A DNA stretch of 64,000 nucleotides from Patescibacteria group bacterium (lineage in GTDB: Bacteria; Patescibacteriota; Patescibacteriia; Patescibacteriales; UBA12465). The stretch is from positions 11,712-75,711 of the forward strand of contig JAVEZP010000003.1 in assembly GCA_034002925.1 (NCBI GenBank), read 5' to 3'. Position 1 is the stretch's first letter, and every line of letters begins with the position of its first letter. The position numbers and the translations under genes were made by a program. This document shows, in pieces, positions 2 to 37,963 of the stretch. The notes below the pieces were generated by a model that had not been told where the DNA came from, did not search any database, and was given only the letters and a program-made list of their open reading frames with translations.

Positions 2-424
2 GCAAAAAATGTGCTTGATAAGATTGTGCTTCCTGTTGATGTGGTGGTTAAAGATAATCGTGGTTACTGTCGTAGTCGTGATGTTAAAGAAGTAAAAAAG
101 AGTGATACTATTTTAGATGTGGGGCCACAAACTATTAGTTTATTTAGTGCTTATATTAAAAAAGCTCAAACGATTGCTTGGAATGGTCCTTTAGGTAAGT
201 TTGAGGAGTCGGCTTATAAACATGGAACTTTAGCTATTGCGGCGATAATTGCAGCGCGGTCTACGGGTGCGGCTTTTGGAGTGGTTGGTGGCGGTGAAAC
301 CGTTGCAGCTTTAAAATTAACACAAATGCAAGGTCATGTTGATTGGGTATCAACAGGAGGTGGGGCGATGTTGTCTTATTTAGGTGGAGAAAAAATGCCG
401 GGTTTAAAAAACATTATTTCTTAA
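2..424 (+). CDS. pgk: Phosphoglycerate kinase, C-terminal part (5' end outside window)
   Basis: Frame is open from the window edge. C-terminal PGK blocks present: WNGPLGKFE, GGGETVAAL, STGGGAMLSYLGGEKMPG. Directly upstream of enolase. Confidence 0.88.
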   Translation, partial: AKNVLDKIVLPVDVVVKDNRGYCRSRDVKEVKKSDTILDVGPQTISLFSAYIKKAQTIAWNGPLGKFEESAYKHGTLAIAAIIAARSTGAAFGVVGGGETVAALKLTQMQGHVDWVSTGGGAMLSYLGGEKMPGLKNIIS

Positions 425-434
425 ATCAATATTT

Positions 435-1745
435 ATGGTTAAGAAAATTTCTAATCAAATTGAAGCTATTAATGCGCGAGAAATTTTAGATTCTCGTGGC
501 TATCCTACGCTAGAGGTTTGTCTACGTTTAGCTTCTGGGCAAAGGACTAAAGCAAGTGTGCCGGTTGGTTTACATCATAATGCTCGTGTTAAATATTTAC
601 ATGATGGCGATCGACGTCGTTTTGAGGGTCGCGGTGTATTGTTAGCTGCTAATCATATCAATGAATTAATCGCACCTAGATTATTAGGCATGTCTGTTTT
701 AGAGCAAGAACAAATTGACCGTTTATTAATTGATTTAGATTCTACAGATGATAGAAGTCAATTGGGAGCTAATACTATTTTAGCCGTGTCTTTGGTTGTT
801 GCCAGAGCGGCAGCCTTGAGTGAGGGTAGGGAATTATTCGCTTATTTAAGAGATAGTTTTAATTTGAACACAACTGATCGTTTGCCTACGCCATTATTTA
901 ATATGTTTAGCGGTGGCAGTCACGCCGATACTAATCTTGATTTTAAAGAATTTTTATTAATCCCTCGGCCCGAGTCAGCTAGTTTTCAGGCTAGTAGTCG
1001 CGAGGGTAGTATGGAAAAAATAGTAAGAGCGGGAGCGGAAGTTTATCATGCTTTAGCTAAAATTTTAATTAGTGCTGGTTATGATTCAGATACTGGCTTA
1101 GAAGGTGGTTATTCTCCCGACATGGATTCAAGTTTAAAAGCCTTAGATTTAATTTTAGCAGCAATTACAAGAGCTGGTTATCGGGTAGAGGAAGACTTTA
1201 ATCTTGGTTTAGATATTGGTTCGGCTCAGTTGTATAACAAAGAAGATAATCAATATATTTTTACTTTAGATAATTTATACTTTAGTGCTACCAATTTAGT
1301 TTCTCTGTATGAAGAATGGTTGAATAAATATCCAATTACTTATTTAGAGGATGGCTTAGCGGCTGATGATTGGCCGGCTTGGCGCCAAGCGACTGCCGCT
1401 TTAGGAGATAAATTAGTTCTAGCAGGTGATGATTTATTTACTAGTAGTATTGAACGTCTACGTCGGGGAATAGCTGAACAAGCTGCTAATGCTTTTGTTT
1501 TGAAACCTAATCAAATTGGAACCTTGACAGAAACAATAGAATGTGCGAAATTAGCTCAAAGGCAGAATTATCGCTTGATTGTTTCTCATCGTGGAGGCGA
1601 AACTAATGATGACTTTATTGTTGATTTGGCAGTCGCTCTGGGTGCTCAATTTATTAAAGCCGGTTCTTTGTCACGAGGAGAGAGAGTGGCTAAATATAAT
1701 CGCTTAACAGAGATTGCCATGATCATTAATCGTATGAAAAAATAG
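435..1745 (+). CDS. eno: Enolase (divergent catalytic loop)
   Basis: Enolase blocks INAREILDSRGYPTLEV, GGSHAD, LEDGL, AGDDLF, KPNQIGTLTE, SHRGGETND, IKAGSLSRGERVAKYNRL. The usual SGASTG loop reads VGLHHN. Confidence 0.9.
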   Translation: MVKKISNQIEAINAREILDSRGYPTLEVCLRLASGQRTKASVPVGLHHNARVKYLHDGDRRRFEGRGVLLAANHINELIAPRLLGMSVLEQEQIDRLLIDLDSTDDRSQLGANTILAVSLVVARAAALSEGRELFAYLRDSFNLNTTDRLPTPLFNMFSGGSHADTNLDFKEFLLIPRPESASFQASSREGSMEKIVRAGAEVYHALAKILISAGYDSDTGLEGGYSPDMDSSLKALDLILAAITRAGYRVEEDFNLGLDIGSAQLYNKEDNQYIFTLDNLYFSATNLVSLYEEWLNKYPITYLEDGLAADDWPAWRQATAALGDKLVLAGDDLFTSSIERLRRGIAEQAANAFVLKPNQIGTLTETIECAKLAQRQNYRLIVSHRGGETNDDFIVDLAVALGAQFIKAGSLSRGERVAKYNRLTEIAMIINRMKK

Positions 1746-1746
1746 T

Positions 1747-2640
1747 ATGGTAACCAGTGAAGCTCAAAATGCAGACGAAGATCTTAGTAAAAAACATCCT
1801 AAAATTTTATGTTTGTTTTTAGATGGCTTAGGAGTAGCAGCAGATAGTGAATTTAATGCTGTTACTAAAGCAAAGCTCATGCATTTAAAAAAATATGTGC
1901 GAGATTTTCCGGTGACTTTGCTGGCTGGTACCACTAAAGATGAAAATAGACGTTATTGGTCTTTAGGGACAGGACTAGAAGACAATAGTGATATTTTTCC
2001 TCAAGCTTTGAGTTCAGTGGTGGAAATTATTAGTCAACATAATTTAAAACAATTAAAGATCTGCGCTAGTGAGCAGGCACTGTCTCTTAATTTGTTTTTT
2101 AATAATTATAAAGGCTCACCCTATTTAGAAGAAAAACGTGTTTGTATTAATACCCCTTCTGAAGAAGACACTTTAAATGATTTGGCTAAAGATTTGAGTC
2201 GTTTAATCCGTGATAATTATCAATCTGGTAAATATGATGTTATTTATGCTAGTTTGCCTTTAGCTCATGAAGCGGCTTGGCGGGGTGATTTTAAAAAAGC
2301 GATTAAAGCATTAGAGGCCTTAGATAAGCTATTAGCTAAAATTATTAATCCGATTATTAATGCTGGTGATTTAGTGTTGTTGCTTTCTCCTTATGGCAAT
2401 ATTGAAAGAACGAGAGATATTTTAGGTGATTGGGACGATAAAGAAGCGACTCATAATCCGGTTCCTTTTTTACTCTTAGGGGCGGAATATGAAGGTAAAA
2501 CAATTGGTTTAGCTGATCCTTTAGATGGTGATTTAAGTATTTTAGCGCCAGGTGGTACTTTGGCTGATTTTGCACCTACATTATTATCTTTGTTAAACAT
2601 AGATAAACCAAAGTTTATGACTGGAGAAAGTTTAATTTAA
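1747..2640 (+). CDS. Miniaturised cofactor-independent phosphoglycerate mutase-like protein (alkaline-phosphatase superfamily core only)
   Basis: N-terminus LFLDGLGV..NAV resembles iPGM LIILDG..GNAV. C-terminus ATHNPVPFLLLG...LADFAPTLLSLLNIDKPKFMTGESLI resembles iPGM TAHT.NPVP...L.DLAPT.L.LLG...P.EMTGKSLI. Only 297 aa, against about 510 for iPGM as I recall it. Confidence 0.6.
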   Translation: MVTSEAQNADEDLSKKHPKILCLFLDGLGVAADSEFNAVTKAKLMHLKKYVRDFPVTLLAGTTKDENRRYWSLGTGLEDNSDIFPQALSSVVEIISQHNLKQLKICASEQALSLNLFFNNYKGSPYLEEKRVCINTPSEEDTLNDLAKDLSRLIRDNYQSGKYDVIYASLPLAHEAAWRGDFKKAIKALEALDKLLAKIINPIINAGDLVLLLSPYGNIERTRDILGDWDDKEATHNPVPFLLLGAEYEGKTIGLADPLDGDLSILAPGGTLADFAPTLLSLLNIDKPKFMTGESLI

Positions 2641-2688: not shown

Positions 2689-2907
2689 ATGCAAGACATG
2701 AGCATGGATGAAAAAAAATCCTTGGAACAAATGTGGAATAATTTTTCTCATTTTATTCCCGGTTGTGTCGTGGTTCAACAAACAAGAACCAAGAGACATG
2801 AAAGTAATCGCCAGTTGCTTGATTATGAATCTGTTGGACCTGGTTATTCTTTAGGAGTCTTTGGCATTGCGCCAATGCCTAACAAAAACAAAAGACCGAG
2901 TCTTTAA
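2689..2907 (+). CDS. Small hypothetical protein (72 aa)
   Basis: Preceded by the strongest Shine-Dalgarno in the window (AAAGGAGGT, 7 nt before the ATG). Stop codon sits inside a terminator hairpin. No recognisable family. Confidence 0.45.
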   Translation: MQDMSMDEKKSLEQMWNNFSHFIPGCVVVQQTRTKRHESNRQLLDYESVGPGYSLGVFGIAPMPNKNKRPSL

Positions 2908-5974: not shown

Positions 5975-7216
5975 ATGTTTAAAGATAAAAAAAGAATTAT
6001 ATTAATAACTATTATTATTCTTCTATTGTTAGCGGCAGTCTTTTATTACTATCAACAAGCTTTTGCTAGTCGAGCGATTGTAGAAGCTCCTGCTTCAGAA
6101 GATAATCAGATTAGTGAACAGATGGAGCTTTCACCTTATGTGATTGAGAAAATAGAAATTTTAGCTGGTGACACTTTTGGACAAGTCGCAGAGAGAGCTG
6201 CTTTAAGTGCAAAAGAAGCGGCAGCTATTTATGAGGCTGCTAAAGAAGTTTATGACTTAGCTAGAATTAAAGCTGGTGCTTATTTAGAATTAATTTACGA
6301 TCGTCAAACTAATGAATTACTAGAGGTAGTTTATAAGATTGATAGTGAAGAAGAATTAGTGATTATAGTTCAAGCTGATAAATCTTTTATAGCTCAATTA
6401 CGTCCAATTGCTTATGATGTTAAAGTAGTACATAAAGAGGCTAAAATTTCTGACTCACTTTATCTCTCAGCTTTAGAGGTAGGCATGGATGAAAAGGCGA
6501 TTATTGCTTTAGCGGAAGCTTTTCAGTGGAGTATTGATTTTGCCATGGATCCCCGTGTAGGTGATACTTTTAAAGTAATTTATGAAGAGCGTTATTTGCA
6601 AGGCGAATATGTTCGTCCTGGTAAAATTTTAGCCGCTCGCTATGTTAATGATGGCACTGCCTATGAATTATATTATTTCCATGAAACTGATGATAATGAA
6701 GGTTATTTTGATAAAGAAGGGAATTCAGTACAAAAAATGTTTTTAAAAGCACCTGTTGCTTTTAAATATATTTCTTCTGGCTTTACCACTGGTCTTCGTT
6801 ATGTAGAAGCTTTTAATGTTTCAACTGGTCATCGAGCTATTGATTACGCCGCTCCTTCAGGGACACCTATTCGTTCCGTAGGTGATGGCACTGTTACTTT
6901 TGCCGGCTGGAATGGGCCTTATGGTTATATGGTGAGTGTGCGTCATAATGGCACTTATTCTACTAACTACGCTCATATGTCTAAAATGACTGTAAAGAAA
7001 GGCGCGAAAGTCAAGCAAGGTGACGTGATTGGCTACGTTGGTTCTACGGGCTTTTCCACTGGTCCTCATTTACATTATGAGATGGTGAGAAATGGCATTA
7101 AAATTAATCCTTTGAATGAAGTGCTACCACCAGGACAAGCAATTAGTGCAGAGCATAAAGAGCGCTTCTTACAAAGTATTGCCGATTGGCAAGGTGAGTT
7201 AAGGCAAATGCAGTAG
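5975..7216 (+). CDS. M23 family metallopeptidase (peptidoglycan endopeptidase), N-terminal membrane anchor
   Basis: HRAIDYAAPSGTPIRSVGDGTV and YVGSTGFSTGPHLHYEM (HxxxD / HxH M23 signature). N-terminal TM helix. ATG at 5975 preferred over the TTG at 5954. Confidence 0.85.
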   Translation: MFKDKKRIILITIIILLLLAAVFYYYQQAFASRAIVEAPASEDNQISEQMELSPYVIEKIEILAGDTFGQVAERAALSAKEAAAIYEAAKEVYDLARIKAGAYLELIYDRQTNELLEVVYKIDSEEELVIIVQADKSFIAQLRPIAYDVKVVHKEAKISDSLYLSALEVGMDEKAIIALAEAFQWSIDFAMDPRVGDTFKVIYEERYLQGEYVRPGKILAARYVNDGTAYELYYFHETDDNEGYFDKEGNSVQKMFLKAPVAFKYISSGFTTGLRYVEAFNVSTGHRAIDYAAPSGTPIRSVGDGTVTFAGWNGPYGYMVSVRHNGTYSTNYAHMSKMTVKKGAKVKQGDVIGYVGSTGFSTGPHLHYEMVRNGIKINPLNEVLPPGQAISAEHKERFLQSIADWQGELRQMQ

Positions 7217-7272
7217 GCTGGGTTTTTTTCGGAAAATGATTTATTATTATAGTATAAGATTAATATTTTTAT

Positions 7273-8217
7273 ATGGCTAAGATTTTAGTAACTGGTGGCG
7301 CTGGTTTTATTGGTTCAATTTTAAGTGATCAACTGATTACTGACGGTCATCAAGTAACTATTTTAGATAATTTACTTTCCGGACAGCGTGATTATGTGAA
7401 TGATCAAGCAGATTTTTGGCAAATTGATCTTGGGAGTGAGGATTTAAAGGAGCGCTTTTTAGCTGCTCGTTTTGATTTAGTTTTTCATTTAGCCGCTCAA
7501 ATTGATGTCCGAAAATCAGTAGAGGATCCGGCTTTTGATAATCAGATTAATGTCTTAGCTGGTCTTAATTTATTAGAAGCTTGTCGACAGAGCGGAGTCA
7601 AAAAAATTATTTTTAGTTCTACCGGTGGTGCTATCTATGGCGAGAGTGATGAAATCCCTACCAGTGAATATGCCCCTGCCTATCCCTTGTCTCCCTATGG
7701 CATTAACAAATTAGCATTTGAGAAATATCTGAATTATTACTACCAAGTTTTTGGTCTCAATTATACCGTGTTACGTTTCGCTAATGTTTATGGCCCACGT
7801 CAGTATAAAGGCGGTGAAGCGGGAGTTATTGCCATTTTTACCGAAGCGGCGGCGAGTGATACAGCTTGTACTTTGTATGGGGATGGTTTGCAAACTAGAG
7901 ATTTTGTTTATGTTGATGACGTAGTAGACGCTTTAATTAAAGCCAGTCAAATTGATTGTCGTGGTGAGATTAATATTAGCACAGGAGTGGAGACTAGTAT
8001 TTTAGATATGATTCAAGCTATTGAGAAGGCGGCGGGTAAAAAGTTGTTGTTAAACAAAGAAGCGGCTCGAGCAGGAGAGCAAAGAAGAAGCGTCTTGTTA
8101 AATAGGCGCGCTTTAGAAACTTTAAATTGGCGCCCACAAGTGTCTTTAGAAGAAGGAGTTGCCAGAGCTTATCATTGGGTTAAGTCTTTAAAAGTAGCAA
8201 AAAATAATCTTAATTAA
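7273..8217 (+). CDS. NAD-dependent epimerase/dehydratase (UDP-glucose 4-epimerase-like)
   Basis: ILVTGGAGFIGS Rossmann motif. SPYGINKLAFE (YxxxK) catalytic motif of extended SDRs. Confidence 0.8.
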   Translation: MAKILVTGGAGFIGSILSDQLITDGHQVTILDNLLSGQRDYVNDQADFWQIDLGSEDLKERFLAARFDLVFHLAAQIDVRKSVEDPAFDNQINVLAGLNLLEACRQSGVKKIIFSSTGGAIYGESDEIPTSEYAPAYPLSPYGINKLAFEKYLNYYYQVFGLNYTVLRFANVYGPRQYKGGEAGVIAIFTEAAASDTACTLYGDGLQTRDFVYVDDVVDALIKASQIDCRGEINISTGVETSILDMIQAIEKAAGKKLLLNKEAARAGEQRRSVLLNRRALETLNWRPQVSLEEGVARAYHWVKSLKVAKNNLN

Positions 8218-8957: not shown

Positions 8958-9791
8958 ATGCTGACAACACTTGCTTGGATTTTTTTAATCCTTTCTATTC
9001 TTATTATGCTTATTCTAGCTTTGCGACGTTTTCCAGCCTTAGCGATTTTGAATGTGGACAATATGCCTGGACAAAAAGAGGCTAAGTTTAAAGAGAAGAT
9101 TATGAAGCAACGCTTAGAAAGGGATTTAAGCGCTTGGTCGGGTCGTCTAAACCGCTTAAGACGGCAAGTGGGTGGATTCATTAGTTCTTTTTTAAAGAAA
9201 CGTCATCAGCGTTTAATGAAAGTCAAGAATGATTTAAGGAAATATCGCAAATTAACTTGGCGAGAAAAACAAGATCAAATTGATTTATTATTTCTCAAAG
9301 CAAATAAAGCTTTAGAGGCAGAAGATTATGAACAAGCAGAAGCACGGTTAATTGAAATTATTAGTTTAGACCCTAAAAGAGTGAAGGCTTTTTTAGAATT
9401 AGCAGAAAGTTATCGTTTACGTAAAAGCTTAAAAGAAGCGAAAGAGACTCTAGAACATGCTTTAAAATTAGCCTTAAAGTTACGTCGTGATCCAGAATTA
9501 TTGGGCAGCATCTCTATTTCTGAAATTCAATTTTCTTTAGCTTGGGTTTGTCAGGAGGCTGAATTATGGTCCGATGCTTTAGAGTATGGTCGTCAAGCCT
9601 TAGATGCGGAACCAAATAATCCTCGTTATCTTGATTTAATTTTAGATTTAAGTATAATAAAAAAAGATAAGAAATTAGCACTCGAAACTTGGGGTAAATT
9701 AGCTTTGGCTAATCCTGATAATAATAAATTAGGAGAGCTAAAAGAAAAGATTGATTTATTACCTGAAGAATTAGACAATAAGCCGTTTTAG
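8958..9791 (+). CDS. Membrane-anchored TPR-like repeat protein
   Basis: N-terminal TM helix, then helical repeats of TPR flavour (AEDYEQAEARLIEIISLDPK, WSDALEYGRQALDAEPNNP). Stop codon lies inside the tRNA-Thr gene. Confidence 0.5.
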   Translation: MLTTLAWIFLILSILIMLILALRRFPALAILNVDNMPGQKEAKFKEKIMKQRLERDLSAWSGRLNRLRRQVGGFISSFLKKRHQRLMKVKNDLRKYRKLTWREKQDQIDLLFLKANKALEAEDYEQAEARLIEIISLDPKRVKAFLELAESYRLRKSLKEAKETLEHALKLALKLRRDPELLGSISISEIQFSLAWVCQEAELWSDALEYGRQALDAEPNNPRYLDLILDLSIIKKDKKLALETWGKLALANPDNNKLGELKEKIDLLPEELDNKPF

Positions 9792-9854
9792 CTCAGTTGG
9801 TAGAGCATTTCCATGGTAAGGAAAAGGTCTCGGGTTCAAATCCCGAAAACGGCT
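9782..9854 (+). tRNA. tRNA-Thr(GGU): tRNA-Thr (anticodon GGU)
   Basis: Hand-folded cloverleaf: acceptor GCCGTTT/AAACGGC, D arm GCTC..GAGC, anticodon stem TTTCC/GGAAA with loop ATGGTAA, T arm TCGGG-TTCAAAT-CCCGA. No encoded CCA. Confidence 0.9.
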
Positions 9855-9899: not shown

Positions 9900-10335
9900 A
9901 TTGTTGTAAAAAATTTATCACCTCTTCATCTCCGTGTAAATCAGAGATGAAAGTTCCCAAGGTTTCAAATTGTTCTATTCTTTCTGGTGTTTCTCCAAAA
10001 AAGAATATTTTAATTTTTGGATTTGCCTGTTTTATTTTATGCAGAACGACAAACATACTTTCTTCAGCATGATGCCAATGCATATCAATATCGTTATAAT
10101 CCATATTTTGAGTTCTGGTAAATAGCACGTCGGCCTTTTTAACAGCTTTCCAGAAATCTTGGCGGTTATTGTGAATAAAGCCTCCAATAAATTTCCAACA
10201 AAGTTTGCGCTTGCTCGCTTTTTCTAGGCTAAGGTGAATAGGTCCTTGAGCACCGAAATAAAGATGTTTACGTGATGTTGGGGAAAAATCACCATGGTGA
10301 AACAATACCATTAAATGCTTTTTTTCTGCTTTCAT
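9898..10335 (-). CDS. Hypothetical protein, paralogue A (145 aa)
   Basis: Long ORF, ATGA-coupled to the upstream gene. Alternating beta/alpha pattern. Similar to the neighbour (ADVLFTRTQ vs ADILLFHRE; KIKQANPKIKIFF vs KIKAANYFIKIY). Confidence 0.5.
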   Translation of the reverse strand: MKAEKKHLMVLFHHGDFSPTSRKHLYFGAQGPIHLSLEKASKRKLCWKFIGGFIHNNRQDFWKAVKKADVLFTRTQNMDYNDIDMHWHHAEESMFVVLHKIKQANPKIKIFFFGETPERIEQFETLGTFISDLHGDEEVINFLQQ

Positions 10336-10790
10336 CTTTTAATTTTTTTAGTGATGTCTGCGAGGCTGTTAATTCGATTAACATGAATGTTTTTAGGCAT
10401 GAATTGAGCAGCTTCGGGCGTAGCATAAATTTTGATAAAATAATTTGCTGCCTTAATTTTAGGTAGTAGCGATGAAAGTCTCTCGGCTTCCTCTTTAATT
10501 ACTTGTGTGTCATCGCCATTATTTTCTCTGTGAAAAAGCAAAATATCGGCCGGTCCTTTACACACATTTTCAAATTGCCCCCCTCGGCCGTTTAAGGGTA
10601 AATTGAAAGATGCTAAGGCAATTGCCCCTACTTCTTTTTGCAGGAATCGATGAAAACCTGCAGTGCTATCAAACTCCGTTCTTCTTACATCCCTCTCTTC
10701 TAAAAGGCAGAGAACTAACATGGGGTGACGATCATTTTTTTCTTGTTGCTTACTTTTAAAGCGTCTCCGCTCTTCATACTTACTTGGCAT
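10332..10790 (-). CDS. Hypothetical protein, paralogue B (152 aa)
   Basis: Long ORF overlapping the downstream gene start by 4 nt. Basic N-terminal tail. Paralogous to 9898..10335. Confidence 0.5.
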   Translation of the reverse strand: MPSKYEERRRFKSKQQEKNDRHPMLVLCLLEERDVRRTEFDSTAGFHRFLQKEVGAIALASFNLPLNGRGGQFENVCKGPADILLFHRENNGDDTQVIKEEAERLSSLLPKIKAANYFIKIYATPEAAQFMPKNIHVNRINSLADITKKIKR

Positions 10791-10931
10791 TTTTTGATTT
10801 TTTAGTTGTTAATGAATTAGTGAACTGTATTTTATCTTAAAATGAATTAAATATTTTGTCAATGCTAATGATTATTTTATTTAATATTAGATATTTTTAT
10901 TATTAAGAACATTAAAGATTAGTCTTTATTA

Positions 10932-10960
10932 TTGACATTTAATTAAAAATGTGATATAAT
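10932..10960 (+). promoter_or_regulatory. Consensus sigma70-type promoter with extended -10
   Basis: TTGACA (10932-10937), 17-nt spacer, TGATATAAT (-10 hexamer 10955-10960). Lies 80 nt upstream of the 11040 start. Confidence 0.55.
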
Positions 10961-11039
10961 TGAGAGTCAAATAAGATAGGCATTCTAACTTATTTGAGGG
11001 ACATTAATAATAAAATATAAACCAAAAATAATATAAAAA

Positions 11040-12257
11040 ATGACACAACAAAGAAATCAGAATCAAGCTCCTCTTCCTTTGCGAAGGGCTATCAGCGTTG
11101 ACCTAACAGTGCAAGGAGAAAAATATTATTTTTCCGTTCGAACTTCTGAGAAATCTCAGTCGGCATCAATGGGCGTGACCATCACAAAAGATAGTCAACG
11201 TCTTCGTGATATTACTAGTGACCAAAATGGATTTTATTTTTTTGAAGTCACACATCCTCAAACAGATGTGGAGCAAAAAATAAAATACGTTTTTTCTCTG
11301 CACCAAGGTGTAGAAAAAGCGGAATTTTTATTGGAAATTCCAAAGAAGACATCGACTCCTAATCCCAAAAAAGATGATCCACAAAAAGTTATCTTAATAA
11401 GGCTTAAAAAACCTAACGGAGATTTTGCCGTATTTTGTCGAGTGCTAAAACCGCTTGGCTATGGCATGAAGGTTGATGTTGATTTGCTTGCTGAAGGCAA
11501 TCGGCACACATGCTCAACCGACGACAAAGGTGTTTTTATTTGGGACTTTCCCTATCAGGTTTTACCTGGGGAAGAGAAGAAGGTTGAAGTGGTTGTTGAT
11601 GGTGTTGAAGACCACGCTAAAATTAATCTGAAGAAACTAAGGACAAGAAGTGCAAGAAGAGCAGGTTGGAGAGGATTTTTTGACTTTAGGACTAATAATG
11701 GTCGTTCAAGAATTCTACTGGTATTAGTTGCCATCTTATGGCTGGTAGCTCTATTTGTTGGCACTGGGCCTGCAGTTATAAACCAAAGTCTTTTTAGAGC
11801 GCAGAATGAATTGTCAGCACAAGAACAGAGAGCTAATAACATTAACGCTCAGTATTTTCCATCAGAAGCAGAGATTTTTAAGGCAAAAGAAGTGTCGAAT
11901 GGGAATTTCAAACGTTTTATTTGGAGGGCCGCTTTAATACTTACTTTGTTGTTACTTATTTATGGACCTCTTTCTTTAAGAGAGGAGATTGCGGAGGAGT
12001 TTTCTTTAGCGGTTGAAAAATTGAAAGACAGAGAGTATGCCCAAGCTGGTGATCCGTGGTTTGAAAAGTTGGTAGCTTGGTCAGGGTCTTATGCTGTTGC
12101 TAGGAGTAGCAGTGCAAAAGCTAGTACAACTAATAGTAACGATCAGACAGTTGCGTCTAATAAACAGAAGGGCTTGTGGCAATATTTGCCAGTTCATTTG
12201 GTGAGTGACGCTATTGTGGAATTTATTCCACTGATAATGAAAGTAATGTTTAAATAA
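11040..12257 (+). CDS. Hypothetical membrane protein with two N-terminal beta-sandwich-like repeats
   Basis: Two repeats of about 90 aa (SDQNGFYFFEV / TDDKGVFIWDF). Then an Arg/Lys-rich stretch, two TM helices and an amphipathic C-terminus. No N-terminal signal peptide. Confidence 0.6.
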   Translation: MTQQRNQNQAPLPLRRAISVDLTVQGEKYYFSVRTSEKSQSASMGVTITKDSQRLRDITSDQNGFYFFEVTHPQTDVEQKIKYVFSLHQGVEKAEFLLEIPKKTSTPNPKKDDPQKVILIRLKKPNGDFAVFCRVLKPLGYGMKVDVDLLAEGNRHTCSTDDKGVFIWDFPYQVLPGEEKKVEVVVDGVEDHAKINLKKLRTRSARRAGWRGFFDFRTNNGRSRILLVLVAILWLVALFVGTGPAVINQSLFRAQNELSAQEQRANNINAQYFPSEAEIFKAKEVSNGNFKRFIWRAALILTLLLLIYGPLSLREEIAEEFSLAVEKLKDREYAQAGDPWFEKLVAWSGSYAVARSSSAKASTTNSNDQTVASNKQKGLWQYLPVHLVSDAIVEFIPLIMKVMFK

Positions 12258-13520: not shown

Positions 13521-13603
13521 GGGTCGGTACCGAAGCGGTCAAACGGGACAGACTGTAAATCTGTTGGCTTTCGCCTTCGAAGGTTCGAATCCTTCCCGGC
13601 CCA
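13521..13603 (+). tRNA. tRNA-Tyr(GUA): tRNA-Tyr (anticodon GUA), long variable arm
   Basis: Acceptor GGGTCGG/CCGGCCC (one G-U pair), anticodon stem ACAGA/TCTGT with loop CTGTAAA, long variable arm, T arm GAAGG-TTCGAAT-CCTTC. No encoded CCA. Confidence 0.9.
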
Positions 13604-17252: not shown

Positions 17253-17323
17253 GCGGGATTAGTTAAGTGGCATAATGGGCGGCTCCAAACCGCCAGTCGG
17301 GGGTTCGATTCCCTCATCCCGTG
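17253..17323 (+). tRNA. tRNA-Trp(CCA): tRNA-Trp (anticodon CCA)
   Basis: Acceptor GCGGGAT/ATCCCGT (G1-U72), anticodon stem GGCGG/CCGCC with loop CTCCAAA, T arm GGGGG-TTCGATT-CCCTC. No encoded CCA. Confidence 0.85.
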
Positions 17324-24333: not shown

Positions 24334-25614
24334 ATGAAACTTTTAAGATTAAAAAACAAAGAAGCTTTAGCGGTGGGAGCAATTATTGTAGCTGCTTTAT
24401 TGTGGAGCTTAGATGGTTTATTTTTAAGACCTAAGTTTTATGTACTCTCTGCACCTTTATTGGTTTTCTGGGAGCACTGCTTAGGCCTGATAGTTCTTAG
24501 TCCTTTTTTGTATATTTATCGTAAGCAGATTTTAACTTTACGAAAAAAAAGTTGGGCTGCTTTATTTTGGGTTAGCGTCTTTGGTGGCTTGATTGGAACA
24601 ATCATGATTACAAAAGCTTTCTTTGCTGCTTTTGCTGGAGAAGCGAGTTTTGCCACGGTCGTTATTTTACAGAAATTACAACCAATTTTTGCTTTATTAA
24701 TGGCAAGATTAATTTTAAAAGAAAAGTTGAGTAAAGAATTTTATTTTTGGGCTTTATTAGCTATTTTAGCTAGTTATGTCTTAGCCTTTGCGCAAAATGG
24801 TTTTAATTTTATAGATTTTAATTGGCAAGAAAATGCTGCTTTATTTGCTTTTTTAGCGGCTTTTGCTTTTGGTTCTTCAACGGTATTTGGAAAAAGGTTG
24901 GCTAATCATTTAGATTATAAAGCGGTAGCTGCTTTGCGTTTTGGTTTGACCTCTGTTTTAGCTTTTATTCTGGTATTATTTAATGGCGATATATTGTTAA
25001 GCCAAGAAATTAGTTCTCTGCAATGGCAGTTTCTATTACTAATTGTTGTCAGTAGTGGTGCTGGGGCTTTGTTTTTATACTATTTTGGTTTACGTCGAGT
25101 GAGCGCGTCAGCTGCAACCTTATTGGAACTTTTTTGGCCTTTTTCGGCTCTAATTTTAGATTATATTTTCAATGGCAATTATTTAAATTATGTTCAAATT
25201 ATTGCTTTGGGCTTTTTGTTGATAGCTTTCTTTCGCATTTCTTTCATTAGCAAGGCTAAACCTTTGTCTTTTGAGGCTCGGGTTATTACTGGTCAAGGGA
25301 AGGGCAAATCTCTGGGTTATCCGACGGCTAATTTAGATAAAGATGCGCTTGATATGCCTCATGGAGTCTATGCGGTGCAAGTTTTTATAGATAGGCAAAA
25401 GTATTACGGCTTATTGCATTTTGGTTTTAAAGATGTCTTTAAAGCAGATGTTTCGGCGGAGATTTTAATTAAAGATTTTGAAGCTGATATTTATAATCAG
25501 ACAATTAAAGTGCAGATTTTAGAGAAAGTGCGAGAAGTACGAGCTTTTAATAATATAGATGAGTTAAAATTAGCTATTGAGAATGATTTATTGTTTTTAA
25601 AAAAATATGTTTAA
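24334..25614 (+). CDS. Fusion protein: EamA/DMT-family 10-TM permease (N) + riboflavin kinase domain (C)
   Basis: About 300 aa of paired EamA-like helices. Then from about nt 25261: VITGQGKGKSLGYPTANL, HGVYAV, AEILIKDFEADIYNQTIKVQILEKVREVRAF..DELKLAIENDL, the RFK (RibF C-terminal domain) signature. Confidence 0.75.
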   Translation: MKLLRLKNKEALAVGAIIVAALLWSLDGLFLRPKFYVLSAPLLVFWEHCLGLIVLSPFLYIYRKQILTLRKKSWAALFWVSVFGGLIGTIMITKAFFAAFAGEASFATVVILQKLQPIFALLMARLILKEKLSKEFYFWALLAILASYVLAFAQNGFNFIDFNWQENAALFAFLAAFAFGSSTVFGKRLANHLDYKAVAALRFGLTSVLAFILVLFNGDILLSQEISSLQWQFLLLIVVSSGAGALFLYYFGLRRVSASAATLLELFWPFSALILDYIFNGNYLNYVQIIALGFLLIAFFRISFISKAKPLSFEARVITGQGKGKSLGYPTANLDKDALDMPHGVYAVQVFIDRQKYYGLLHFGFKDVFKADVSAEILIKDFEADIYNQTIKVQILEKVREVRAFNNIDELKLAIENDLLFLKKYV

Positions 25615-33641: not shown

Positions 33642-34508
33642 ATGACTAAGCCAAAAAAAACCACAAAAACTAAGAAAAAAAGCAAAAAAATGTTAAATCC
33701 ATTTTTTACAGACAAAGACTTTAAATTATATCAAGCTAATAGTTTGGAATTTTTGGCTACTTTAGAAGAGAATTCGGTTGATATGATTTTTGCTGATCCG
33801 CCCTATATGTTGTCTAATGGTGGTTTTTCAGTGCATGCTGGGAAAATGGTTAGTGTTAATAAGGGAGAATGGGATGTTAGCAATGGCCTTAAAAAAGACT
33901 TTGAATTTCAATTAGCGTGGATTCAGGCTTGTCACAGAGTGTTAAAACCTGGTGGCACAATTTGGATTTCTGGAACCTATCATTCTATTTATCAATGTGG
34001 CTTTGCTCTTCAGGTAAGCAAGTTTCATATTTTAAACGATATTGCATGGTTTAAACCCAATGCTTCTCCTAATCTAAGTTGTCGCTTTTTTACAGCTAGT
34101 CACGAAACTCTCATTTGGGCAAGAAAAGAATTAGTGCATCCTAAAACAGGTAAAAAGATTAATACTAAACATAAGTTTAATTATGATTTAATGAAAAATG
34201 GTCATTGGCCAGAGGACTTTTTGAAAAAACCTAATTTACAGATGCGTAGTGTGTGGTCAATGGGTACACCTAAGCCAGCAGAGAAAAAACACGGTAAACA
34301 CCCGACTCAAAAACCAATAGATTTATTAGTTCGTATTGTAATAGCTAGTACTAATAAGGGTGATTTAGTTATTGATCCATTCACTGGATCCTCCACAACT
34401 GGCTTAGCTTGTGTTTTAAATGATAGAAAATTCATTGGCATCGATTTGGAGAAGAAATATTTGGAGTTGTCTGTTAAGAGATATAAGGATTTATTAGGCA
34501 ATAAATAA
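33642..34508 (+). CDS. Beta-class N6-adenine DNA methyltransferase, DpnA (M2.DpnII)-like
   Basis: DMIFADPPYMLSNGG (motif IV) precedes DPFTGSSTTG (motif I). NLSCRFFT, ETLIWARK and GKHPTQKP blocks align with my recollection of DpnA. A TATAAT hexamer abuts the 33642 ATG, so ATG 33690 (MLNPFF) may be the real start. Confidence 0.85.
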   Translation: MTKPKKTTKTKKKSKKMLNPFFTDKDFKLYQANSLEFLATLEENSVDMIFADPPYMLSNGGFSVHAGKMVSVNKGEWDVSNGLKKDFEFQLAWIQACHRVLKPGGTIWISGTYHSIYQCGFALQVSKFHILNDIAWFKPNASPNLSCRFFTASHETLIWARKELVHPKTGKKINTKHKFNYDLMKNGHWPEDFLKKPNLQMRSVWSMGTPKPAEKKHGKHPTQKPIDLLVRIVIASTNKGDLVIDPFTGSSTTGLACVLNDRKFIGIDLEKKYLELSVKRYKDLLGNK

Positions 34509-34516
34509 ATATAATC

Positions 34517-36187
34517 TTGAATTTTATGAATAATGACATATATGCTGGTTCATATCTATATTCTTCAATTATAGATAAAGTTTCAGCAAAACATTTAATA
34601 CCAACGTTACAGCGGCCTTATGTCTGGACGGATAAAAAACAGGTGAAAAAATTTATTGAAGACATTTTAACTAGCAATGATTATTATTTTATTGGTAGTT
34701 TGGTTTTTGTTTTGTCGTCGAACGGGACCGTTGGAAGGGATGAGATTATAGATGGGCAACAGCGGATGATAACCATATCTTTAATTTTGATAGCAATAAG
34801 AGATCTAATTATAAAGCATAAAAAGGAGAAAAAATTAAACGATGCCTTGCGTGAAATTAGTGGTTTTTTAGAATTTGTAGATTCATATGATTTAAAAAAG
34901 AGCCCAAGAATAGAATTTTATGACAAAAGAACAAATAGTTTTTATATAAAATTATTAAAAGGAGAAGCCGGATCTCCTGAAACAGAAACACAAAAAAGAA
35001 TTTTAGATAATTATAATTATATTTATAAAGAGTTAGCTAAAAAGTGTGGCAAAAATATTGATGTAGAGATCACGAGTTTTTTGAACAAGATAAAAACGCT
35101 TAAGGTTATTGCTATAAGTTGTACAAATAATTCAATAGCATATGAATTGTTTGAGAGTATAAACGCTACCGGAATGTCATTGGCTAGCGTTGATTTAATT
35201 AAAAATTTTCTTTTTAAAAATGCATCAAAAGATAAGTCTTTACTATCTAAAGTTGAAACAAATTGGCAAAAATTAGAGGATATATTTTCAGACAATAGAG
35301 CACTTTTCAAAACATTTTTAAGACATCACTGGATAAGCAATGGCTATTATATTAGTCATTCTGGTTTATATTCTGATGTTGAAGTAAAACATAAAGAAAA
35401 AAAAATCACTTCGGTAAGCTATTCTGAGGAATTAGCACATGATGCAGTTACTTATGTGTCGTTGAGGACTGCCAATGCCGAGTCTTTAAGCAAGATACAA
35501 AAATGGAAAAGATTTGATGCAAAATCCGTTAAAGAGGTTCTTGAATTTCTTTCCTTTTTGAGCGTAGATCAGGTTTATGCCCCAATTTTATTTTTTTATA
35601 AAAATGAAAGCAAAGATAAGTTTAAAAAAATGCTTAATAGATTAGCAGCTTTTCAATTTTTGTATAAGTATATTGCAGGAAGCCCAAGTTCTGCGGAGAA
35701 AATATTTGCTGGCTTTGCTAAAAATAACAAGGATGTTAATACACTATTTCAAGAATTGCACAATTTAGTAAAGAACGGTCACGACGAGTTCGTAGAAAAT
35801 TTTTCAAAAAAAAGCATTTACAAAGTATCTAAAAGTGGAGATGTGCAGTTTGTTCTAGAGAGATATGTTTTTTCTAAGGGCGGGGCTCGATCATTCAAAG
35901 AGCCCACTATAGAGCATATAATAAGTCAATGTGATAAAGATGATGATTATGTCCATGAAATTGGTAATCTTACTATTTTTGAACTTAGTGAGAATTCTAA
36001 ATTGCCGACAAAATTTAAAGATAAAATTAGTATTTATAAAAAAAGTCCATATAAAGAGCATCAATTAATTTTAAAATATGATTTTGATAAAAATTATAAA
36101 AAATCTATCAAAAGAAGAACTGAAGATATAGCATCAGATGTTTATGATATTTTTGTTAATATTTTAAAGACCGGTAAAATTATATGA
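34517..36187 (+). CDS. DUF262/DUF1524 (GmrSD-like) putative modification-dependent nuclease
   Basis: N-terminal DUF262 (IPTLQRPYVWTDKKQVKKFIEDI, IIDGQQR). C-terminal DUF1524 His-Me finger-like (TIEHIISQ...IGNLTIFELSENSK). Possible ATG start at 26 nt further in, 34526. Confidence 0.8.
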   Translation: MNFMNNDIYAGSYLYSSIIDKVSAKHLIPTLQRPYVWTDKKQVKKFIEDILTSNDYYFIGSLVFVLSSNGTVGRDEIIDGQQRMITISLILIAIRDLIIKHKKEKKLNDALREISGFLEFVDSYDLKKSPRIEFYDKRTNSFYIKLLKGEAGSPETETQKRILDNYNYIYKELAKKCGKNIDVEITSFLNKIKTLKVIAISCTNNSIAYELFESINATGMSLASVDLIKNFLFKNASKDKSLLSKVETNWQKLEDIFSDNRALFKTFLRHHWISNGYYISHSGLYSDVEVKHKEKKITSVSYSEELAHDAVTYVSLRTANAESLSKIQKWKRFDAKSVKEVLEFLSFLSVDQVYAPILFFYKNESKDKFKKMLNRLAAFQFLYKYIAGSPSSAEKIFAGFAKNNKDVNTLFQELHNLVKNGHDEFVENFSKKSIYKVSKSGDVQFVLERYVFSKGGARSFKEPTIEHIISQCDKDDDYVHEIGNLTIFELSENSKLPTKFKDKISIYKKSPYKEHQLILKYDFDKNYKKSIKRRTEDIASDVYDIFVNILKTGKII

Positions 36188-37101
36188 AATTTCTAAATTT
36201 TTACAAAAAAAAACTAAGTTGTCAAAATGAAGACGAAGTTTTTAATTATTTAATTAATAACTTAAAGCCAAGTATTATTCTTTGGTCTTATTTTGTTAAT
36301 TGGGATAAGGTTTTTAATAATACCAAAAAGATAGAAATAGCTTTAAATAATCTTAATTATTTAATTGGAAAAGAAGATTTTGATAGTGAATTCAGATTTT
36401 TAATTAAGGAAAATCCAGAAATTGCTAAAGTTATTCCTGCGTTGGTTGTGCGTGATGGAAGTAATACTAATAAATTTAATATTTTAGTTGATTATAAAGG
36501 TAAGAAACTAGTTTATGAAGAATACGATTTTTCTAAAAAAGAGATGACAGATGAGGACGTGGAAAAGTATCTTATGTTTGTAAAAGAGTCAGGATTAAAA
36601 GATTTAATTATCTCACAAAAAATCAAAAACCTTGTTGATTATATGATTGGCGTAGAGGCTGGGCTTGATAGTAATGGTAGAAAAAATAGAGGTGGCCATT
36701 CTATGGAGAGTATAATAGAATTTTTTATTAAAGATGTTTGTGAGAGTAAAAAATATAGCTATATTAAAGAAGCAACCTCAGAGAAAATAAATAAAGAATG
36801 GGGCTATGACGTTCCAGTGGACAAGTCTTCTCGCAGATATGATTTTGTTGTTAACACTGGCAAAGAACTTGTTATTTTTGAAACTAATTTTTATGGTGGT
36901 AGTGGCTCTAAGTTAAAGTCAACTGCTGGAGAATATAGAGACCTTTTTAATGTCTTAAAAGGTCAATATAAGTTTATTTGGATTACAGATGGTAATGGCT
37001 GGAAGTCTACAGCCCGGCCCCTTAGGGAAACCTTTAATCACAATGACTATGTGATTAGTTTAGAGATGGTTGAAAAGGGTATTTTAAATGAAATCTTTTA
37101 A
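36184..37101 (+). CDS. DpnII-family type II restriction endonuclease (predicted GATC)
   Basis: NLVDYMIGVEAGLDSNGRKNRGGHSMESI, RYDFVV, ETNFYGGSGSKLKSTAGEY, WITDGNGW and LRETF match the DpnII/MboI family blocks as I recall them. Start overlaps the previous stop (ATGA). Confidence 0.8.
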   Translation: MKFLNFYKKKLSCQNEDEVFNYLINNLKPSIILWSYFVNWDKVFNNTKKIEIALNNLNYLIGKEDFDSEFRFLIKENPEIAKVIPALVVRDGSNTNKFNILVDYKGKKLVYEEYDFSKKEMTDEDVEKYLMFVKESGLKDLIISQKIKNLVDYMIGVEAGLDSNGRKNRGGHSMESIIEFFIKDVCESKKYSYIKEATSEKINKEWGYDVPVDKSSRRYDFVVNTGKELVIFETNFYGGSGSKLKSTAGEYRDLFNVLKGQYKFIWITDGNGWKSTARPLRETFNHNDYVISLEMVEKGILNEIF

Positions 37102-37165
37102 TTAAAGATATAAAAATCATTAAGCTTGTTGAGATGAATTTAAAAACCGTTGATGTGCCACAAGG

Positions 37166-37963
37166 ATGTATAAAGTGTTTTATTATATGAACATTTTTAA
37201 AAAAGAAAAATCATATTCTAAACAAAAGATTAAAATTAATCTTATAAAACAGTGGATTTTTTATATTTTTGCCTTCTTGCTTATTGTTGTTTACCTCTCT
37301 TATTCTATTAATAAATATAGACATTTAGATCGAGATACGCTTAGGGTTTTTGCTTTACTAACATTAGGCTTTCTTTCTGGTATATTGTCTTTGTGGTTTT
37401 TAAAGTTAATTAATAATTTCTTTTCAAAAACTGATACTGAGATAAATAAGGCTAGGAAGGGAAACGAAGGAGAAAAATTAACCTATCTTAATTTAGTTAA
37501 ATTTCTGGGTAATAATTATAAAATTTATAAAAATTTTAAAATACCTAATCGTAAATTTGATATAGATTTTTTAATAGTTGGCCCTAAGGGATTAATAGTG
37601 ATAGAAGTAAAAAATAGTTCAAATTCCTATATTTTTACAGAAAAAGAAGCTAGGAGAATAAAGGGAGAAGGATATTCTAGGAAAACTACTCTTTTGTTTG
37701 GTAATTGCGATCCTCGTGTAAAGCTAATAAATCATTGCAAATCTTTAAATCATTATTTATATTCCTTGGGTTTAGTTGGTTTTAGGATTAAAAAGGCTTT
37801 GTTGTTTATTAATGGGAATATAAGCATTAATGATAAATCCGGTGTATATATTATTAATGGAATAAGCAAATTGCGTGAGTATATAGAAGGACTAAATTAT
37901 GACGATAGATTCACTGCAGAATTTTGTGAGACTGTTAATAGGAGCTTAATTGATAAAATATAA
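37166..37963 (+). CDS. NERD (nuclease-related domain) protein with two N-terminal TM helices
   Basis: GNEGEKLTYLNLVKFLG...KFDIDFLIVGPKGLIVIEVKN fits the NERD core (GxxGE...D-x-hhh...G-hhhhE-x-K). Preceded by two hydrophobic helices. Confidence 0.65.
   Translation: MYKVFYYMNIFKKEKSYSKQKIKINLIKQWIFYIFAFLLIVVYLSYSINKYRHLDRDTLRVFALLTLGFLSGILSLWFLKLINNFFSKTDTEINKARKGNEGEKLTYLNLVKFLGNNYKIYKNFKIPNRKFDIDFLIVGPKGLIVIEVKNSSNSYIFTEKEARRIKGEGYSRKTTLLFGNCDPRVKLINHCKSLNHYLYSLGLVGFRIKKALLFINGNISINDKSGVYIINGISKLREYIEGLNYDDRFTAEFCETVNRSLIDKI

Follow-up and report, generated by a model that had tools for sequence, protein, structure and literature searches.

A truncated, catalytically degenerate relative of cofactor-independent phosphoglycerate mutase encoded next to enolase in Patescibacteria

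In a 64,000-nucleotide stretch of a Patescibacteria group bacterium genome (assembly GCA_034002925.1, contig JAVEZP010000003.1, positions 11,712 to 75,711 of the forward strand), it was found that the enolase gene eno is directly followed by a gene for a protein of 297 amino acid residues (aa) derived from cofactor-independent phosphoglycerate mutase (iPGM). The whole stretch is called the window here, and its positions are counted from its first letter. The protein, hereafter X (1747..2640, + strand), consists of the phosphatase domain only and is catalytically degenerate, based on Pfam, NCBIfam, PDB, fold and alignment comparisons. As judged from its sequence, X almost certainly lacks the canonical iPGM reaction. 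Its gene is intact and has been kept by strong purifying selection. The explanation I consider probable is that X is a pseudoenzyme that plays a non-catalytic role through an expanded loop, as a partner or regulator of the enzymes of lower glycolysis. X appears to belong to an undescribed but widespread pseudo-iPGM lineage of ultra-small bacteria, whose parent clade of iPGMs with the same long loop is likewise undescribed. X is named a 'hypothetical protein' by NCBI PGAP (MDX9779000.1) and 'iPGM' by IMG, and a literature search found no paper on a truncated or pseudo-iPGM.

The original prediction, made by eye from this stretch, had proposed an iPGM homolog from which the phosphotransferase domain of ~230 aa is absent, and both points were confirmed. 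In a Pfam scan, PF01676 (Metalloenzyme superfamily) matched residues 19-287 of X with 65.5 bits (E 7e-18), while X had no match to PF06415 (iPGM_N, the transferase domain). There was no match to His_Phos_1 either, so X is not a cofactor-dependent phosphoglycerate mutase (PGM). The closest solved structure is Geobacillus stearothermophilus iPGM 1ejj (E 5e-20), which was aligned in two pieces, with residues 18-60 of X on chain residues 5-46 and residues 90-297 on chain residues 316-509. Thus, the gap between 46 and 316 in the 1ejj alignment spans the missing transferase domain, in place of which X has a linker of about 14 to 30 residues. Residues 77-90 (1975..2016, +) make up a short variable linker at the PF06415 position. 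X fails the iPGM equivalog TIGR01307 (95.9 bits against a cutoff of 330.65) and NF003897 (83.6 bits, cutoff 862), and two other members of the short family score 105-122 bits against TIGR01307. With 13.4 bits against TIGR00306 (cutoff 320), X is not an archaeal-type ApgM. With 32 family members as input, AlphaFold2 gave a model with a pLDDT of 89 and a pTM of 0.88. In Foldseek, this model matched the phosphatase domains of the iPGMs 1ejj and 7tl8 with TM-scores of 0.78-0.80 (normalised to the query), and the next fold matches were other cores of the alkaline phosphatase (AP) superfamily. The N-terminal extension (residues 1-18; 1747..1800, +) varies in the family alignment and is predicted to be disordered, with pLDDT below 50 for residues 1-15. 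Neither a signal peptide nor a membrane segment is evident in the X sequence.

The iPGM mechanism requires a two-metal site, a Ser nucleophile and a transferase domain that holds the glycerate. The catalytic positions were mapped in an alignment of 334 sequences, comprising 124 short proteins and 210 full-length iPGMs. The Bacillus stearothermophilus numbering was taken from the original prediction and placed via the motifs of canonical iPGM. All nine positions are 100% conserved in the full-length iPGMs (210/210). In X, only Asp12 is kept, as D26, which is the sole metal ligand left, the other six of the seven being replaced. D26 is in LFLDGLGV (1813..1836, +), the first strand of the phosphatase domain, and this column is Asp in 111 of the 124 short proteins. 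The other eight positions are replaced: Ser62 by E66, His66 by Y70, Lys336 by Q110, Asp403 by H174, His407 by W178, Asp444 by P215, His445 by Y216 and His462 by A234. The proposed loss of most catalytic residues was thus borne out by the alignment, in which neither the catalytic Ser nor the set of metal ligands is conserved.

The motifs had been paired by eye as GNSEVGH with ENRRYWS and PDMVGH with PLAHEA. The loss of these motifs is real, but both registers were about two residues off. GNSEVGH is replaced by KDENRRY (1936..1956, +), where the E66 column is variable and Y70 is Tyr in 123/123 aligned short proteins, and NPDMVGH is replaced by LAHEAAW (2260..2280, +), as seen in both the 1ejj match and the alignment. 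The pairing of ADHGN with SPYGN was right. SPYGNIE (2386..2406, +) takes the place of ADHGNAE, with G217 and E220 invariant and N218 nearly so in the alignment. Finally, ATHNPVP (2446..2466, +; 1ejj match and alignment) replaces (A)HTTNPVP and has A234 at His462; H236 of THNPVP is not the equivalent of His462, and its column varies within the family. Among the 124 short proteins, the Ser62 column has no Ser, the His462 column has no His, and the Asp444 column has Asp in one sequence. The nucleophile column is hypervariable (E/D/L/P/I/A/Y/V), and most of the former catalytic columns are likewise highly variable without being fixed again. Since the vacated positions vary and share no new fixed set of residues, a replacement catalytic centre is argued against. 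All three requirements of the iPGM mechanism are missing from X, which excludes the canonical chemistry.

Is X common, and is it maintained? The short architecture is present with an intact reading frame in at least 124 sequences. Grouped at 90% identity, the proteins of 281-303 aa came to about 51 clusters in a word-indexed search, and a profile search raised the number to about 100. When 1.84 billion representatives (50% identity) were searched exhaustively with a profile, 77 of the best 150 proteins were short. A genome scan found X in 31 species-level genomes, one of them a closed 896-kb chromosome, and several of the 31 are titled Ca. Falkowbacteria, Parcubacteria group or Patescibacteria group. 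For six unsaturated pairs, the dN/dS of X was 0.051-0.084, and that of the adjacent enolase in the same pairs was 0.008-0.091. Among four near-identical environmental copies of X, all eight nucleotide differences are synonymous. Most positions conserved at 90% or more in the short family belong to fold-core motifs common to iPGM. The newly fixed residues are Y70 (formerly an invariant His), K104, F182, L196 and G245, and, within the loop, G250, I253, G254, L255, D262 and S264. Because these newly fixed residues sit mainly in the loop, constraint seems to have moved there from the active site.

This loop is the clade-specific trait of the family. In X it covers residues 245-270, GAEYEGKTIGLADPLDGDLSILAPGG (2479..2556, +), as defined by the alignment, and residues 251-260 have a pLDDT of 69, which means moderate model confidence. 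In the short family it is nearly invariant (GKTIGLxDPxDxDLSxLxP). The segment from NPVP to APT has 35 residues in X and in 123 of the 124 short proteins, and 18-26 residues in 202 of 203 full-length iPGMs other than the copy-2 proteins described below. The long-loop clade was defined by a segment of 32-36 residues having the motif D[LI]S[LIV]..P. Two full-length iPGMs, P0191 and P0193, outscore the other full-length proteins by far against the short-family profile and keep all catalytic residues. Their loci, L044 and L046, were found to carry two gpmI genes in tandem next to pgk/eno, of which these proteins are encoded by the second, and L048 and L049 are arranged likewise. Copy 1 and copy 2 lie at 6422-7993 and 8001-9584 in L044, 2822-4363 and 4440-6020 in L046, 10001-11563 and 11583-13157 in L048, and 10001-11572 and 11593-13170 in L049; all are full-length and catalytically intact. 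Copy 1 has the ordinary loop and copy 2 the 35-aa loop, the segment being 32-35 residues in all seven copy-2 proteins. In the pairs of L044, L046 and L048, copy 1 scores 550-590 bits and copy 2 scores 604-653 bits with TIGR01307, both above the cutoff. Two intact gpmI copies are thus kept in small, streamlined Patescibacteria genomes.

In a neighbour-joining tree of 267 shared columns, 100/100 bootstraps recover the short family as monophyletic. In 74/100 the sister of this family falls among the copy-2 proteins, and an exclusive clade of short and copy-2 proteins appears in 60/100, which is moderate support. On these grounds, X nests inside iPGM and is taken to be descended from the long-loop paralogue, and it does not belong to another superfamily branch of known function. 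The long-loop iPGM clade appears to be new to the literature searched and has been found so far only in Patescibacteria.

Among the best 150 representatives, the long-loop clade includes full-length intact, full-length decayed, short intact and short fully degenerate forms. Of the 75 full-length proteins listed there, 44 have fewer than nine canonical positions. P0343 (L050) is a full-length dead form that occupies the same eno-X-DUF212(-)-gyrB(-) slot, and the substrate motifs of its transferase domain are also decayed. The L050 enolase was considered as a decayed 78-aa fragment, which would weigh against a partnership with enolase, and this was rejected: the ORFs show an intact enolase split by a scaffold gap. 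Two short proteins, P0452 and P0410, have all nine positions intact. P0452 (MBI4276787.1, Ca. Uhrbacteria; L051 1203-2120), annotated as 'hypothetical protein', is encoded between an RmlC-like gene and a Bac_transf sugar transferase gene in a context of polysaccharide synthesis. Two further patterns were observed. In the long-loop relatives P0364 and P0401 (full-length) and P0362, P0385 and P0387 (short), Ser62 is replaced by Cys with every metal ligand kept (pattern DCHKDHDHH), which may represent altered chemistry rather than loss. A recurrent full-length subgroup (P0406, P0408, P0411, P0434, P0445, P0469 and P0474) has Asp12 changed to Glu, Lys336 to Gly or Ala, and Asp444 to Ser or Thr, and keeps His407, His445 and His462; this conserved pattern suggests a remodelled metal site.

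Comparison with known proteins places X as follows. GpmI (1EJJ/1O98; TIGR01307; PF01676 plus PF06415) is homologous to X in the phosphatase domain, whose N-terminal segment of ~60 aa and C-terminal segment of ~210 aa align in the same order. The two share the motifs LDGxG, NA(V/I), QLxI, FFN, GNxE, NPVP, APTxL and G.SLI and a glycolytic gene neighbourhood, whereas X has no transferase domain, has eight catalytic residues replaced and has the loop expanded to 35 aa. The copy-2 iPGMs (P0191, P0193 and those of L048 and L049) share with X the loop EG..LG....DLSL.P, absent from the ordinary iPGMs examined, but they are full-length with the nine positions kept, and their loop sequence is far less conserved than that of the short family. 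The full-length degenerate P0343 and P0372 have in common with X the loop type, the lost metal ligands and the change of His66 to Tyr, and P0372 also has SPFGNAE- and LHLLAEE-type motifs like those of X; unlike X, both still have a transferase domain, with decayed substrate-binding motifs. Outside iPGM, the periplasmic domain of PbgA/YejM (6XLP, 6V8Q and 6VAT) has an AP-superfamily core like that of X (Foldseek E about 1e-9), although it belongs to another branch, is membrane-anchored and periplasmic, has no relation to glycolysis and is only 13-15% identical. This domain is regarded as a regulatory or binding module and not an enzyme, and thus took the same evolutionary route as is proposed here for X. 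ApgM (TIGR00306) and the phosphopentomutase DeoB have the core fold of X with distant sequence similarity, but keep the nucleophile, the metal sites and a cap domain.

As had been predicted, X occupies a glycolytic position straight after eno with a 1-nt gap. The window begins within pgk (phosphoglycerate kinase, PGK), so that only its 3' part is included (11..424, +; PF00162, 126.9 bits, profile positions 253-379). pgk is the first gene of the pgk-eno-X cluster. The enolase gene (435..1745, +; TIGR01060, 456 bits against a cutoff of 300) is apparently intact, and the motifs which I take to be catalytic are all present (LDSRG, GGSHA, KEFLL, LEGGY, GLDIGS, YLEDGL, GDDLF and KPNQIGT). At residue 387, this enolase has SHRGGET where SHRSGET is usual; the same Ser-to-Gly change is present in several close relatives and absent from more distant ones. 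The Ser concerned is presumably a contact for the substrate phosphate. Direct reading of the junction between the eno stop codon and the X start codon (1743..1749, +) gives TAG-T-ATG, a 1-nt spacer without a separate Shine-Dalgarno sequence, and the spacer is 1-9 nt in related loci. The junction suggests that X may be translationally coupled to eno. A promoter and terminator scan gave nothing above chance.

In related loci, the order is PDZ protease, pgk, eno, X, (a small ORF), DUF212(-), gyrB(-), epimerase and tpiA. This order, including pgk-eno-X, persists down to 31% identity within Ca. Falkowbacteria/order BM507 of the Patescibacteria. Downstream of X, the ORF list contains a 72-aa ORF (2689..2907, +) that has its own strong Shine-Dalgarno sequence (AAGGAGG) and no Pfam match. 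A small ORF is called at the equivalent place in many related loci, with poor conservation (31% identity in L007), and its membership of the pgk-eno-X unit is uncertain. Directly upstream of the PDZ protease-pgk-eno-X genes, there is always a conserved gene of ~250 aa (L001 5601-6362; L003 5617-6375; L005 4588-5340; L038 1621-2424), which falls outside the window. It was examined as a candidate cryptic PGM, and no Pfam match was found at E<=1. Loci L007-L009, L018, L020, L022 and L029-L031 have clear Falkowbacteria-type synteny, yet their records are titled 'uncultured Gammaproteobacteria bacterium' or 'Bacillota bacterium'; these titles are probably taxonomic mislabels of metagenome-assembled genomes.

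Does another enzyme supply the step between PGK and enolase? The search covered the 64-kb window and related loci rather than whole genomes. With full-length iPGMs and isolated transferase domains as queries, phmmer found nothing else in the window or in 37 related loci (643 kb). No cofactor-dependent PGM was found in the same DNA with an approximate E. coli GpmA sequence and the RHG motif, a weak result since the query was inexact. Among 50 further ORFs of the window, a Pfam scan detected neither a PGM nor a histidine phosphatase, nor any further protein of the AP superfamily. On the large X-bearing contigs (0.1-0.98 Mb), no full-length iPGM match was placed among the best 120 per search, which is also weak. 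PGM was reported as undetected in shallow Parcubacteria clades, possibly because of divergence (Jaffe et al. 2020; PMC7304191). Patescibacterium danicum belongs to order BM507, whose contigs are 'Candidatus Falkowbacteria' in the NCBI taxonomy, and its glycolysis was called complete except for PFK (PMC11809585). Both closed Patescibacterium genomes have a single K15633 'gpmI' as the sole PGM-type gene listed and no gpmB (PMC11809585, Table S9).

These results can be arranged into the following scenario. An ancestral patescibacterial iPGM may have gained the 35-residue surface loop, and this form would have become the second gene of the tandem gpmI pair seen beside pgk/eno in relatives. In the Falkowbacteria/BM507 line, the long-loop copy would then have lost its metal ligands, its nucleophile and its transferase domain, and the ordinary-loop copy would no longer be within the cluster. 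The full-length dead form in the same genomic slot may be a surviving stage before the excision of the domain. What remains would be a stable core of the alkaline phosphatase fold, unable to bind two Mn2+ ions or to form phosphoserine, and made together with PGK and enolase, probably through translational coupling to eno. Strong purifying selection, conservation of the operon and the nearly invariant loop together argue for a retained non-catalytic function that is co-expressed with PGK and enolase. By means of this loop, X would most likely bind, scaffold or regulate the enzymes of lower glycolysis. The original prediction had left a pseudo-enzyme, a regulator and new chemistry side by side; the first two are favoured because the old active-site positions vary while selection concentrates on the surface loop, and the third is ranked lower. 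Several points weigh against this reading. Around the old site, Asp26, Tyr70, Asn218, Glu220, Thr235 and Asn237 stay conserved, and some distant short members retain Asp403, His445 or Lys336. The ancestry of X, the loss of the domain and of the catalytic residues, the selection and the synteny are shown by the data, but the non-catalytic role is deduced from what was lost, and the loop as a functional surface, the link to enolase and PGK and any partner of X are putative. In addition, an intact and selected enolase and PGK flank the missing step; the cell therefore seems to need an activity between 3-phosphoglycerate (3PG) and 2-phosphoglycerate (2PG), and X might still supply it, as no other PGM was seen in the window or related loci.

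The last point leads to the alternative that X is still an enzyme, either the only phosphoglycerate mutase of the lineage or a phosphatase, with a new metal-poor chemistry based on residues such as Arg68/Arg69, Tyr70, Asp26, Glu220 and Asn218. I regard this as decidedly unlikely. Selection on X equals that on enolase, pgk, eno and tpiA are all intact in the cluster, Tyr70 never varies, and the close subfamily conserves RRYW well, all of which would fit an enzyme. However, neither the hypervariable nucleophile column nor the metal-ligand columns have been fixed again, only 60% of the 124 sequences have Arg69, and the glycerate-binding domain is gone. To my knowledge, no AP core that is bare and metal-free is known to carry out phosphomutase chemistry, which also weighs against this alternative. 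The lone 'gpmI' of the two Patescibacterium genomes would support it, but the identity of that gene with the short form is unproven. A broader proposal is that Falkowbacteria/BM507 have no canonical PGM at all, so that X interconverts 3PG and 2PG by an unprecedented mechanism free of metal site and transferase domain, or the step is broken. This is rather unlikely in my estimation. If the step is broken, enolase may use imported 2PG or phosphoenolpyruvate (PEP), and X may be a dedicated non-catalytic subunit of the enolase/PGK machinery.

X might also be non-catalytic and have nothing to do with glycolysis, for example as a binding protein linked to the envelope or to polysaccharides, its place after eno being a leftover of the ancestral gpmI position. 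The location of P0452 away from glycolytic genes is in line with this, as are the copy-2 genes that do not adjoin eno (L046, L048 and L049) and the envelope genes of the conserved neighbourhood (PDZ protease, DUF212/PAP2, epimerase and M23 peptidase). On the other hand, the 1-9 nt junction and the pgk-eno-X order are retained however far the degenerate short proteins have diverged (down to 31% identity), a persistence that exceeds the usual inertia in streamlined genomes, and X has no evident signal for export or membrane insertion. The idea is therefore improbable, though worth keeping in mind. Much less probable is that X is half of a split iPGM, paired with a separate transferase domain or with a second intact iPGM elsewhere in the genome. 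iPGM is indeed a two-domain enzyme, P0452 and P0410 are short and yet have a complete phosphatase site, and the tandem pairs of relatives indicate that two copies can coexist. Yet the half that X would contribute has neither nucleophile nor metal site, no transferase-like ORF was found in the window or the 37 related loci, and the large X-bearing contigs, with the weakness noted above, gave no full-length match. Least probable of all is a functionless remnant on the way to loss. The massive loss of catalytic residues and of an entire domain would suit a remnant, but dN/dS values of 0.05-0.08, the intact frame in 124 or more sequences, the invariant new motifs and the synteny across at least 31 species-level genomes effectively refute it.

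Other features of the window are described briefly. The region 33642-37963 resembles a restriction-modification/defence island: it encodes an N6/N4 DNA methylase, GmrSD, a DpnII endonuclease and a NERD nuclease, and its GC content is low (31% between 34 and 36 kb and 27% between 36 and 38 kb, compared with ~35% in other parts). One ORF at 24334-25614 (+) combines an EamA-type transporter domain with a C-terminal riboflavin kinase domain. Three tRNA genes (9782-9854, 13521-13603 and 17253-17323) are the sole Rfam matches in the window.

What does this mean for the Patescibacteria? Since IMG labels X as iPGM, calls of 'complete glycolysis' for the order BM507 may be overstated. If the K15633 gene of P. 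danicum is of the X kind, the type genus of the phylum would have an unrecognised gap in its inferred energy metabolism. If these bacteria do have no canonical PGM, the published 'complete glycolysis' reconstructions for BM507, the order that holds the type genus of Patescibacteriota, would rest on a dead enzyme. The long-loop clade offers a graded natural series of intact, Ser-to-Cys, full-length dead, short intact and short dead forms, along which the birth of a pseudoenzyme and the loss of a domain from a core glycolytic enzyme can be studied. A dead enzyme that is under enolase-like constraint and probably coupled to enolase in translation points to a non-catalytic function within the minimal metabolism that episymbiotic bacteria have.

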